DNA of 64,000 bases from Myxococcota bacterium (GTDB lineage: Bacteria; Myxococcota; UBA4151), in contig JAYZBQ010000022.1 in the NCBI GenBank assembly GCA_036338695.1, positions 1 through 64,000 on the forward strand, in the 5' to 3' direction. The position numbers and the translations under genes are program-made. This document shows positions 61,725 to 62,273 of the stretch, piece after piece. The notes beneath the pieces were generated by a model. The model worked only from the letters and a program-made list of their open reading frames with translations. It was not told the origin of the DNA and ran no database searches. Each line of letters begins with the position of its first letter. Position 1 is the first letter of the stretch.

Positions 61725-62273
61725 ATGGCTGATCAGCATTTAACGAGCACGAGAGTTGCGGAAATCCTTGGGGTTACGGCGTCAACGGTCAAACGTTGGG
61801 CTGACGAAGGCTCCTTGCCTTGCGAGCGCACCGCTGGGGGACACCGGCGCTTCTTGGCGTCCGAGGTCGCACGCTTCCGACAAACAGAAGCAGACACCAG
61901 CGTGGCGCATCTGGCCACGCTAAGCGAAGAAGAGTTTGACGCGCTCCCGTACGGCGCGATCGGGCTCGACGAGCAAGGGGTGATCATCCGCTACAATGCA
62001 ACCGAGGCGACGTTTTCGAACCACAAGGCGGACCAAGTTCTCGGGAGGAACTTCTTCACGCAGGTCGCTCCCTGCACCAACAACCGACTCGTCTTTGGCG
62101 CTTTTCGTGATGGGATCGCGTCGGGCTCGATGGACGTGAAGATCCCCTACACCTTCACTTATGTGATGAAGCCGACCAACGTCGTGCTTCACATGGTGCG
62201 CTGCCAAGATACCCGGACCAACTGGCTGCTAGTCCACCATAATACGGATTCGACCGGCTCACTTATCGTGTAA
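61725..62273 (+). CDS. BldC/MerR-like HTH fused to a photoactive yellow protein (PYP) domain
   Basis: N-terminal VAEILGV..STVKRWADEG.L...RTAGGHRRF; C-terminal LPYGAI.LD..G.I.RYNATE, GRNFFTQVAPCT and YTFTYVMKPT. Confidence 0.88.
   Translation: MADQHLTSTRVAEILGVTASTVKRWADEGSLPCERTAGGHRRFLASEVARFRQTEADTSVAHLATLSEEEFDALPYGAIGLDEQGVIIRYNATEATFSNHKADQVLGRNFFTQVAPCTNNRLVFGAFRDGIASGSMDVKIPYTFTYVMKPTNVVLHMVRCQDTRTNWLLVHHNTDSTGSLIV

Follow-up and report, generated by a model that had tools for sequence, protein, structure and literature searches.

Decades of biophysics on the photoactive yellow protein (PYP) have left one main question, namely through which partner, and to what output, it signals; a 2025 survey describes its signal transduction chain as 'an important gap in knowledge' (PMC12826048). 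The window analysed here, a 64,000-nucleotide stretch of a Myxococcota contig, raises this question directly: one of its genes joins a BldC/CarH-like winged helix-turn-helix (HTH) to a PYP domain in a single chain, hereafter HTH-PYP. With a natural PYP attached directly to a DNA-binding domain, and with operators and a regulon proposed for it, the gap becomes open to ordinary bench tests. Sequence and analogy somewhat favour the view of HTH-PYP as a one-component blue-light transcription factor and a candidate array-binding repressor, in the dark, of a photoprotection regulon.

The HTH-PYP fusion and its DNA-binding domain

The gene and its parts are the following.

61725..62273, + strand: HTH-PYP gene, 182 residues, ATG start (ORF call, Pfam and NCBIfam matches, spanned by other studies' contigs)
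61737..61883, + strand: residues 5–53, BldC/CarH-like winged HTH (HTH_17/MerR and HTH_BldC; aligns to CtMerR 8jbs, RacA and BldC)
61884..61907, + strand: residues 54–61, short linker between the final HTH helix and the PYP cap (predicted structure)
61908..62240, + strand: residues 62–172, complete PYP domain including the N-terminal cap helices (TIGR02373, ungapped PYP alignment, Foldseek)
62073..62075, + strand: TGC codon of Cys117, equivalent to the chromophore-bearing Cys69 (Cys in 68/68 fused sequences)

An earlier note, made from the letters of the window, had read the gene as such a fusion and named an assembly artefact as a way in which the reading could fail. The fusion survives this test and is real and conserved. 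The reading frame is single and contains no internal stops, and it is covered whole by independent DNA contigs from two other studies, each of which differs by 1 base. Full-length HTH-PYP is present in 12 of 301 genomes of the phylum, spread over 4 families, and in 6/6 genomes of the window's class, and the HTH is found in 67 of 120 listed homologue clusters. The spanning contigs refute an error of assembly or gene calling, which, given the open frame and the identical architecture elsewhere, retains practically no credence. Stretches of the gene are also covered by contigs from RNA libraries, and one such contig crosses the join between HTH and PYP; because DNA carry-over is possible, these contigs are a hint only and neither prove transcription nor give its level.

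In a tree of PYP domains, all 67 fused tips fall into one clade that contains 0 of the 53 stand-alone tips (support 0.865), and the sequence comparisons indicate that the fusion is old and selected. A weak search returned no longer fused forms at E 1e-10. HTH and PYP are encoded by split genes at four Thermoanaerobaculia loci (L021–L024); locus L015 carries tandem HTH-PYP genes with SDR, SRPBCC and RudS homologues directly upstream. No discussion of the architecture was found in the literature, two PYP surveys included, and mentions in subscription journals are possible. The multidomain PYPs described in the accessible part of the 2025 survey carry phytochrome, kinase, GGDEF/EAL, MCP, V4R or REC modules and no HTH, and a supplementary table of that survey holds one row, 'HTH_17 PAS', for one Myxococcales protein (PMC12826048). 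New here are the 57-residue partner, the photolyase/RudS/RibA island and the phased AAAWCGACY arrays in the candidate regulon, which are described below.

The N-terminal domain is BldC-like, as the earlier note had proposed from its wing motif. Residues 6–53 match Pfam HTH_17, MerR_1 and MerR (E 6e-10 to 1.5e-9), and residues 5–50 match HTH_BldC (NF033787) with 54.3 bits, under the family cut-off of 77. The wing motif RTAGGHRRF aligns to RTLGGHRRY of BldC, and BldC residues R30, W31, G44, H46, R47 and R48 correspond to R24, W25, G38, H40, R41 and R42 of HTH-PYP, all six invariant in 52/52 family members. Like Streptomyces BldC (PDB 6ama, 6amk), with which it shares these six key residues, HTH-PYP has a winged HTH of the MerR kind and lacks a coiled coil: in the AlphaFold2 model only a 12-residue helix (45–56) precedes the PYP cap, unlike in canonical MerR proteins, which have a long coiled-coil helix for dimerisation and an effector pocket at the C-terminus. 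The differences are also clear. BldC is a stand-alone protein of 68 residues with no sensor, whereas HTH-PYP carries a PYP domain after the HTH; BldC K26, T29 and K33 are replaced; and the head-tail salt bridge E16-R22 is lost, with R10 and G16 at these positions.

The best PDB match of the HTH is CtMerR (8jbs, E 5e-9), and 41 of the 59 nearest non-PYP relatives of the domain carry B12-binding domains, a domain for which Pfam gave no match within the HTH-PYP protein. No HTH protein with a B12 domain was found in the genome. Apart from HTH-PYP the genome has no strong BldC-like HTH: against HTH_BldC, HTH-PYP scores 56.8 bits there, and the runner-up, an excisionase-like protein, scores 23.8 bits and lacks the GGHRR wing, and just one other protein matches MerR_1.

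The AlphaFold2 model of the whole chain (pLDDT 85.2) bears out the attachment of the HTH at the N-terminal cap that had been noticed in the sequence: the HTH runs directly into the PYP cap helices. The joint itself is modelled less confidently, with a mean pLDDT of 62 for block 51–60, which is flanked by helices 45–56 and 60–65, and the linker varies in length across the family. HTH-PYP shows how the cap-unfolding signal of PYP could couple to an output domain. EL222-type LOV-HTH proteins are likewise one-component blue-light DNA-binding proteins with a PAS sensor and an HTH. EL222 has a flavin and a C-terminal LuxR-type HTH; HTH-PYP instead has its BldC-like HTH at the N-terminus, at the PYP cap.

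The PYP domain and its predicted chromophore

The sensor domain aligns to PYP throughout. Pfam places a PAS domain on residues 71–161, and the NCBIfam model photo_yellow (TIGR02373) matches residues 62–171 (E 2.2e-32). In a phmmer search of the PDB, residues 63–170 align to residues 15–122 of Halorhodospira halophila PYP over 108 residues without gaps (E 7.5e-25), and therefore with a residue offset of 48. The chromophore triad is kept (Y90=Y42, E94=E46, C117=C69), as is the pocket: F110/F111=F62/F63, P116=P68, Y142=Y94, F144=F96, Y146=Y98, M148=M100 and W167=W119. Two positions are substituted, T50 by S98 and R52 by H100. This alignment agrees with the earlier claim of a complete PYP in its offset, its triad, its pocket residues and both substitutions, and the TGC codon for Cys117 is seen at 62073. 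In Foldseek, the AlphaFold2 model superimposes on 1gsv/2phy with TM 0.87–0.89 and an rmsd of 1.3–1.4 Å over 116 columns. Judged by these alignments, the PYP domain is complete and its pocket intact. With H. halophila PYP it shares the full PAS fold with the N-terminal cap, Cys69/Tyr42/Glu46 and most pocket residues; it differs in that residues 1 to ∼13 of PYP are replaced by the 53-residue HTH and linker.

By homology, the domain would carry a p-coumaroyl thioester on Cys117. The source of p-coumarate is less evident. No gene for tyrosine ammonia lyase (TAL) or p-coumaroyl-CoA ligase (pCL) lies in the window, as had been noted, and the genome search that the note had suggested found neither in the 3.36-Mb assembly (93.6% complete). 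The sole aromatic lyase is classed by its score as HutH (697 bits against a cut-off of 539), with hutU and hutI also present, and one such lyase occurs in 5/6 genomes of the class. The best match to the pCL model (TIGR02372) in the genome reaches 50 bits against a cut-off of 334.7, which is attained in 0/6 genomes of the class. The missing pCL is weak evidence because 0/301 genomes of the phylum reach this cut-off, including 49 with a PYP. No TAL or pCL gene lies beside HTH-PYP at 8 other loci.

These absences bear on the possibility that the PYP domain is no photoreceptor at all and that HTH-PYP is a ligand-responsive regulator sensing a chemical, either free hydroxycinnamates or the redox state through its cysteine. 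Besides the lack of TAL and a dedicated pCL in 6/6 class genomes, such a sensor would accommodate the Ser at T50 and the His at R52, a position that is variable across the family, and the TIGR02373 score, which lies under the curated cut-off (111.8 against 143.05 bits). That cut-off, too, is reached by 0/49 PYP-bearing genomes of the phylum. Several observations weigh against a chemical sensor. The triad is invariant in 68/68 fused sequences examined, and the eight further pocket residues are kept. A pCL above cut-off is missing throughout the phylum and, in the available part of Xing et al. (PMC9664959), functional PYPs have a TAL gene within five genes in only at least 10% of cases and a pCL gene in at least 30%; a neighbouring TAL or pCL is no strict requirement for a functional PYP. 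In addition, the closest relatives of the HTH are light sensors, and the candidate regulon described below is light-specific (photolyases, rhodopsin, RudS). We therefore regard a purely chemical input as improbable and retain a photoreceptor as the working assignment.

Phased 9-bp arrays and a candidate light regulon

The HTH-PYP gene sits within a photolyase/RudS/RibA island, whose main members are given here.

54275..56565, + strand: SDR (epimerase + DUF1731) and DNA photolyase genes with a 4-nt overlap (Pfam)
57934..59959, − strand: RudS-type gene (2-thiouracil desulfurase + DUF1722), DUF2878 and SRPBCC (Pfam)
63750..64000, + strand: start of the GTP cyclohydrolase II (RibA) gene, which continues to 64418 in contig C22 (Pfam)

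According to the accessible text of two reports, such gene sets have been met under light control before. RudS genes are reported from light-responsive operons (PMC11417400), and with the MerR-type LitR of Pseudomonas, which is controlled by a stand-alone LOV PAS protein, a photolyase, an SDR, an FAD oxidoreductase, a GTP cyclohydrolase and RudS are light-induced (PMC9758184, PMC11417400).

Phased units of the form AAAWCGACY occur in seven promoters around the HTH-PYP gene. They came to light on reading through the intergenic regions; near the gene, neither generic repeat finders nor tandem-repeat finders singled them out. A scan of 61200–62400 for sigma-70 promoters and terminators gave no match. 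A first motif, derived from the HTH-PYP promoter itself, matched exactly at one site and, with one mismatch, at 17 uninformative others; it was dropped. The arrays in the window are listed below.

49914..49940, + strand: three-unit 9-bp direct-repeat array (27.1 bits; TRF period 9)
52531..52548, + strand: array upstream of a SOUL heme-binding gene (27.7 bits; array also before the G004 SOUL orthologue)
52583..52600, + strand: second SOUL array, 15 nt before the start codon (25.6 bits)
54212..54259, one array per strand: two arrays between DUF1295 and the SDR-photolyase operon (PWM, intergenic reading)
60012..60029, + strand: array between RudS and an Omp85-like gene (24.5 bits; same place in G001 and G003)
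61654..61671, − strand: degenerate two-unit array in the HTH-PYP promoter (AAAACGTGC AAAAAGGCT; block conserved in 4/4 genomes of the genus)
61678..61695, + strand: second phased pair, also in the HTH-PYP promoter (TAAAGGTCC AAATAGTCC; its 14-base core is unique in the genome)
63722..63748, + strand: array abutting the RibA start codon (21.6 bits)

The 9-bp arrays to which the earlier note had alluded are thus present and stand at light-related promoters. A two-unit position weight matrix (PWM) gives 18 matches of at least 21 bits in the genome and 1 in the reversed genome used as null; at 23 bits or more the counts are 13 and 0. The 7 matches on contig C22, which lie less than 16 kb from the HTH-PYP gene, are circular because the motif was chosen by eye from the island. 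The other 11 of the 18 lie off this training contig, 8 of them intergenic, 1 inside recG and 2 at the 5' boundaries of divergently called ORFs. Genes beside these untrained matches encode a bacterial rhodopsin (Bac_rhodopsin), a photolyase-related protein (DPRP) with an NmrA-type SDR, a glutathione peroxidase, a fatty-acid desaturase, YceI and a flavodoxin/FAD reductase; an amine oxidase gene has a weaker match of 18.9 bits. The arrays stand ∼0–35 nt from the start codons of light-defence genes and ∼100–200 nt upstream for rhodopsin. Arrays are also conserved before orthologues, within the genus for DPRP, RudS and FAD reductase in G003 and RudS in G001, and in the sister genus for SOUL, ferrochelatase and YceI in G004 and YceI in G005.

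The layout recalls that of BldC, which binds head-to-tail to 9-bp direct repeats AATTxxxx(C), according to the part of the report available (PMC5859096). Both repeats start A/T-rich, AATTxxxxC for BldC and AAAWCGACY for the candidate sites in the HTH-PYP genome. Given its BldC-like residues and the matching arrays, the HTH would bind the phased AAAWCGACY direct repeats head-to-tail.

HTH-PYP might instead have a narrower task, regulating in response to light only itself and the small gene next to it, with the AAAWCGACY arrays belonging to another regulator or serving as promoter elements for an alternative sigma factor. At the 8 other HTH-PYP loci the neighbours share no function, and the small gene is the sole conserved neighbour family-wide. 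The arrays in the gene's own promoter differ from the regulon consensus and are weak here (∼14 and ∼8 bits, as sums from the PWM). Nor does the consensus spread with the protein: at up to 2 mismatches, five distant HTH-PYP genomes hold 3, 3, 2, 4 and 4 sites against 0, 7, 0, 8 and 5 in the control, which is no enrichment, and five genomes without HTH-PYP give similar counts (2, 3, 5, 0 and 3). At 3 mismatches the counts across the class are noisy (51 against 18 in the control for G000, 58 against 50 for G002). Several arrays also touch start codons, where an A-rich stretch of the array could serve as a −10-like element. Against this restricted role stand the 9-bp head-to-tail layout, which suits the BldC mode and is unlike the spacing of −35/−10 boxes, the lack of another BldC-like HTH in the genome, and the closeness of 7 of the 18 top matches to HTH-PYP. 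Moreover, the G001 counterpart of the 61654..61671 array (AAAACGACCAAAAAGACC) has one mismatch to the consensus, and in G060, a distant genome, two arrays, one of them a perfect AAAACGACCAAAACGACC array, lie in the ∼60 nt upstream of a gene for a 267-aa CarH/LitR-like protein whose HTH is of the type seen in HTH-PYP. Taken together, restriction to its own locus is unlikely, though it deserves serious attention.

Returning to HTH-PYP as a regulator of the wider set, its candidate targets are the photolyase, the photolyase-related protein, RudS, RibA, SOUL, ferrochelatase, glutathione peroxidase, rhodopsin and HTH-PYP itself. The position of the arrays and the analogy with CarH/LitR suggest that HTH-PYP is probably a dark-state repressor of this photoprotection regulon. 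In the dark the arrays would be occupied and the targets repressed. Blue light would isomerise the chromophore and loosen the N-terminal cap that is fused to the last HTH helix; binding or cooperativity would then weaken and the targets would be derepressed. CarH/LitR and CtMerR (8jbs), B12-dependent light-regulated repressors of the MerR type, have the same type of N-terminal HTH and a C-terminal sensor, and the light-defence gene sets of CarH/LitR are similar. Their sensor, however, is a four-helix bundle with a B12 Rossmann domain, whereas that of HTH-PYP is a PYP (PAS fold, p-coumarate, blue light). For CtMerR, AdoCbl photochemistry has been measured, according to the accessible text (PMC11796333). 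If the proposal holds, this protein of 182 residues would make a blue-light gene switch of very small size, and its chromophore, which can be supplied externally, would not overlap with flavin sensors. In marine microbiology, the finding points to a rarely sampled Myxococcota lineage with rhodopsin as one that has a light regulon, the rhodopsin included.

A two-helix neighbour and the proposed switch

The small gene lies immediately upstream of HTH-PYP.

61476..61649, + strand: 57-aa partner gene, predicted two-helix hairpin, no known family (adjacency, co-occurrence, AlphaFold2)

It adjoins HTH-PYP in 8/9 loci and occurs in 11/12 genomes with HTH-PYP and in 0/289 genomes without. By co-occurrence only, its product is a dedicated partner of HTH-PYP. 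The protein has no Pfam or NCBIfam match, and a protein atlas pairs it with unnamed clusters only (0.80). AlphaFold2 predicts helices 3–26 and 28–52 (pLDDT 79.6). Complex prediction for HTH-PYP with the small protein gave a score of 0.01 and a mark of 0.32, values that weigh neither for nor against a contact. As a guess, the small protein is an anti-repressor or tunes oligomerisation.

The strictness of this co-occurrence and adjacency invites a scheme in which output runs through protein contact, the light state of HTH-PYP capturing or releasing the hairpin as the true effector while the HTH merely tethers. There is precedent for such contacts: the accessible part of one report describes a PAS photoreceptor that binds a MerR-type regulator in a light-dependent manner (PMC9758184). 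In that system, PmlR2 and PmSB-LOV of Pseudomonas mendocina, a blue-light PAS sensor likewise controls a MerR-like HTH repressor of photolyase-type genes; it differs in using separate chains and FMN, whereas HTH-PYP is one chain with p-coumarate as the expected chromophore. Its layout is resembled by the split Thermoanaerobaculia loci. On the other hand, G001 has lost the small gene and kept HTH-PYP with its promoter block, the small gene is missing at L015, where two HTH-PYP genes occur, and the HTH shows no variation in its DNA-contact residues. Output mainly through the hairpin is accordingly improbable, and direct DNA binding by HTH-PYP stays the preferred reading.

The small protein could still have a part in such direct control. 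In an ambitious version, which we rate as a long shot, HTH-PYP, the 57-aa hairpin and the 9-bp arrays would form a three-part switch that rebuilds the logic of CarH/LitR from different parts. A hairpin dimer would make a four-helix bundle and so provide the oligomerisation module, which in CarH is present in cis, and the PYP cap, freed by light, would break a head-to-tail filament on the DNA. This switch would be armed only with hydroxycinnamate derived from phytoplankton, because, on this account, the lineage makes no p-coumarate. If so, rhodopsin, photolyases and porphyrin control would be turned on by the coincidence of light and algal exudate. The family of the small protein comprises at least 230 clusters.

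The HTH-PYP gene and its PYP domain

The HTH-PYP gene joins an intact PYP pocket and cap to a BldC-like HTH and forms a conserved two-gene module with a small partner. Both genes lie on the forward strand:

61476-61649, +: small partner gene, 57 aa from a conserved ATG
61725-62273, +: HTH-PYP ORF, an uninterrupted frame with an ATG start, 182 residues

The domain content is as the earlier note had read it. By Pfam, residues 6-53 match HTH_17, MerR_1 and MerR, and residues 71-161 match PAS. NCBIfam assigns residues 5-50 to HTH_BldC and residues 62-171 to photo_yellow (TIGR02373, E 2.2e-32), both scoring below the curated cut-offs (54.3 versus 77 and 111.8 versus 143, respectively). 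Against PDB sequences, residues 63-170 align without gaps to residues 15-122 of H. halophila PYP (E 7.5e-25), and all residue correspondences listed in the earlier note are readable from this alignment. C117 (TGC at 62073) occupies the Cys69 position; T50 and R52 of PYP are replaced by Ser and His. Tyr42, Glu46 and Cys69 are kept in all 68 fused sequences. An AlphaFold2 model was built from an alignment of 52 family members (mean pLDDT 85.2), and its C-terminal part matches PYP crystal structures with TM 0.87-0.89 and rmsd 1.3-1.4 Å over 116 columns, cap helices included. The last HTH helix (residues 45-56) runs through a short lower-confidence linker into the two cap helices (60-65 and 68-72), so the HTH is joined at the N-terminal PYP cap as first claimed. 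By fold and pocket, HTH-PYP is a member of the PYP family.

An assembly artefact, considered earlier, is contradicted by DNA contigs of two other studies, which span the fusion (61676-62400 and 61637-62400, one base difference each). This stretch of DNA recurs among the marine and seawater metagenomes that several studies produced. Contigs of two metatranscriptome libraries cover 61769-61965 (spanning the domain junction), 61865-62025 and 62141-62288, only a hint that HTH-PYP is expressed.

The fusion is present in all six genomes of the class. Among the best 120 homologue clusters listed, 67 contain the HTH wing motif (127-227 residues), and the remaining 53 consist of stand-alone PYPs. Across 301 evenly sampled genomes of the phylum, the PYP domain occurs in 49 and full-length HTH-PYP in 12, from four families. 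In a tree of the PYP domain only, with one partial row left out, the 67 fused tips form one clade with none of the 53 stand-alone tips inside (support 0.865), which points to a single origin of the fusion and then long retention. At one locus (L015:10001-11199), a tandem pair of HTH-PYP paralogues, with 46% and 44% identity to the query, lies directly 3' of SDR-DUF1731, SRPBCC and RudS homologues, and the small partner gene is absent. Four loci of Thermoanaerobaculia MAGs (L021-L024) show a split form of stand-alone PYP and a separate, divergent HTH-only gene (46-50% identity over 45-48 residues); the stand-alone PYP genes are two or three in tandem at L021, L022 and L024 and single at L023.

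Full-text literature searches found no paper on a natural HTH-PYP. The terms HTH, MerR and helix-turn-helix are absent from the main text of Xing et al. 2022, and in its tables HTH/MerR terms occur only among neighbouring genes (PMC9664959). Dohmen et al. 2025 count only proteins of >200 residues as multidomain, so most HTH-PYPs (170-200 aa) would be classed as single-domain; HTH, MerR and DNA binding are absent from the main text, and one supplement row is a Myxococcales protein parsed 'HTH_17 PAS' (PMC12826048). In the available text of PMC10468136, PYP is named only as a cofactor cluster. As a PYP architecture, HTH-PYP is real and conserved and has gone essentially undescribed; a candidate operator and regulon accompany it, as does a dedicated partner gene.

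The PYP domain would carry covalent p-coumarate and run a PYP-type photocycle. The earlier note saw no tal or pcl gene in the window, and the genome search for TAL and pCL that followed gave a similar picture. The assembly (93.6% complete) contains one aromatic ammonia-lyase, HutH by score (697 bits, cut-off 539), with hutU and hutI elsewhere; exactly one such lyase occurs in five of the six genomes of the class, the sixth being 59% complete. No ligase near the TIGR02372 cut-off is present in the assembly or the class, and this model is non-discriminating here because none of the 301 phylum genomes reaches the cut-off, the 49 with PYP included. According to Xing et al., at least 10% of functional PYPs have TAL within five genes, and the figure for pCL is at least 30% (PMC9664959). 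The simplest guess is that p-coumarate is taken up and then activated by a general acyl-CoA ligase.

The HTH and its relatives

V17, K23, R24, W25, G29, T36 and GGHRR of the HTH are invariant in all 52 family members. The closest PDB matches to residues 1-60 are CtMerR (8jbs, E 5e-9), RacA (E 2e-7) and BldC (6ama, E 1e-6); CarH is a much weaker match. The regulator CtMerR binds adenosylcobalamin, and its response to light was measured with a construct that had no DNA-binding domain (PMC11796333). BldC has no coiled coil and sits head-to-tail on 9-bp direct repeats, AATTxxxx(C); its Arg30 makes a pyrimidine-guanine contact, His46, Arg47 and Arg48 occupy the narrowed minor groove, and Gly44 is part of the protomer interface (PMC5859096). 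These residues correspond to R24, H40, R41, R42 and G38 of HTH-PYP, in agreement with the BldC likeness first proposed; K26, T29, K33 and the E16-R22 pair of BldC are not conserved. In its residues the HTH resembles BldC, but it does not do so in family score or architecture.

The closest 59 HTH relatives without PYP in species-representative genomes were translated and searched for domains. B12-binding domains occur in 41 and a receiver domain in one, and 17 have the HTH alone at E 1e-6. Given these 41, the HTH subtype is used mostly in regulators that sense light, and HTH-PYP looks like their chassis fitted with another sensor. Its putative function resembles that of both CarH/LitR and LOV-HTH proteins, and it is a member of neither group.

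The small partner and the surrounding island

The small partner is the sole neighbour that travels with the fusion. It adjoins HTH-PYP in eight of nine full-length loci in species genomes, in the same direction in three lineages and divergently in six. Of the 301 phylum genomes, 11 have it, always within ~500 bp of full-length HTH-PYP, and none of the 289 fusion-less ones does (37 with other PYPs); the counts overstate independence because the genomes that have it are kin (four families, five genera). From this co-occurrence, it is a dedicated partner gene of HTH-PYP. The twelfth HTH-PYP genome, G001 of the same genus, has lost the small partner and retained the promoter block: at G001:C58:3745-3873 (L110), the Omp85-like gene is followed by ~130 nt with the conserved HTH-PYP promoter block, the small partner being deleted. 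The family comprises at least 230 clusters, all unnamed and with no Pfam match, around the conserved core QLxxLYxERxxLxxxLGxxDxxxIIAMVRSLEAQLxDLY. The protein is modelled as a hairpin with two helices of 24 residues each (pLDDT 79.6), which might, speculatively, provide an oligomerisation or anti-repressor function. Two forms of 110-111 aa (P0121 and P0122), scoring about twice the single forms, are probably tandem duplications of the hairpin.

The island around HTH-PYP is a gene run typical of bacterial light defence:

SOUL heme-binding protein
DUF1295
SDR with DUF1731, overlapping DNA photolyase
SRPBCC and DUF2878
2-thiouracil desulfurase-DUF1722 fusion (RudS type)
DUF2177
GTP cyclohydrolase II
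FAD amine oxidase
ferrochelatase

RudS-type proteins strip 4-thiouridine from tRNA and their genes reportedly occur frequently in operons that respond to light, with photolyase and under the control of MerR-type LitR (PMC11417400). The Pseudomonas LitR regulon contains photolyase, a short-chain dehydrogenase, an FAD oxidoreductase and GTP cyclohydrolase I (PMC9758184, PMC11417400). At seven other HTH-PYP loci, besides L015, the neighbours are unrelated.

The 9-bp arrays and a putative dark repressor

Intergenic regions of the island, read by eye, contain phased 9-bp direct repeats of two or three units with the consensus AAAWCGACY:

49914: array, intergenic, island
before SOUL: two arrays, intergenic, island
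between DUF1295 and the SDR-photolyase operon, both strands: arrays
between RudS and the Omp85-like gene: array
directly against the RibA start: array
65982 of C22, the window's contig: array adjoining MauE-like and ferrochelatase genes

A weight matrix was derived from 14 array units, and pairs of adjacent units were scored with the reversed genome as control. Two-unit matches of at least 21 bits number 18 in the genome versus one in the control, and those of at least 23 bits 13 versus none, so the arrays claimed earlier are real and enriched. Seven of the 18 fall on the training contig and were discounted. By rough ORF calls, eight of the 11 new ones are intergenic, two fall within the opening codons of a pair of divergent ORF calls and one is inside recG. 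Genes beside the matches outside the training contig are:

bacteriorhodopsin-like gene: two arrays, ~100 and ~200 nt upstream
photolyase-related protein (PF04244) with NmrA-type SDR
glutathione peroxidase
fatty-acid desaturase with TetR gene
YceI
flavodoxin/FAD reductase
fasciclin gene divergent from adenylate cyclase gene
flavin amine oxidase (weaker, 18.9 bits)

The bacteriorhodopsin-like gene (C80:5392-6096 of the same genome, L123:3193-3897) encodes 234 aa; the organism is probably a rhodopsin photoheterotroph with its rhodopsin in the same candidate regulon. Arrays also precede orthologues in the sister genus (SOUL, ferrochelatase and YceI in G004; YceI in G005) and the same genus (photolyase-related gene, RudS and reductase in G003; RudS in G001). 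The HTH-PYP promoter block is conserved in all four genomes of the genus and reads on the minus strand as a two-unit array, which in G001 differs from the consensus by one mismatch and in the window's genome is degenerate. The arrays are thus enriched, and partly conserved, at light-related promoters.

Several observations argue that HTH-PYP binds the arrays. Their period and head-to-tail layout match BldC, the one solved relative without a coiled coil. Apart from HTH-PYP, the assembly has no strong BldC-like HTH; the single other HTH_17 match is excisionase-like without the wing motif, the single other MerR_1 match is a small canonical MerR, and no HTH+B12 protein was found. Array density is highest around the HTH-PYP gene, and the candidate regulon fits the targets expected of a light sensor. 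The distant genome G060 encodes a CarH/LitR-like protein of 267 aa whose HTH is of this subtype too (C383, L159:1491-2364); just upstream of its gene lie a perfect two-unit AAAACGACCAAAACGACC array and, on the opposite strand, a second one. CarH binds tandem direct repeats. Against the link, the motif was chosen by eye, and neither five distant HTH-PYP genomes nor five fusion-less ones show enrichment of its consensus. The arrays may instead be promoter elements, as some of them touch start codons. If HTH-PYP is their ligand, the HTH would bind them as head-to-tail multimers. It would repress in the dark, since CarH and LitR do so and most arrays lie no more than ~35 nt from a start codon; light would relieve repression by loosening the cap, which tethers the HTH.

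At C22:65979-65999 an array is immediately followed by ATG within the 5' end of the MauE-like longest-ORF call, and this junction, AAAACGTTCATG, recurs at C72:39134. The true starts may abut the arrays, in which case leaders would be very short or missing. A D12-class N6-adenine DNA methyltransferase gene (48324-49163; L125:2324-3163) lies just upstream of the 49914 array. Elsewhere in the window, 22703-24536 contains long 96-bp (and 192-bp) tandem repeats, as many as 13 copies, with an abundance of Cys, Asp and Gly codons; they are probably of the DUF4215 type, as in two other large proteins of this genome.
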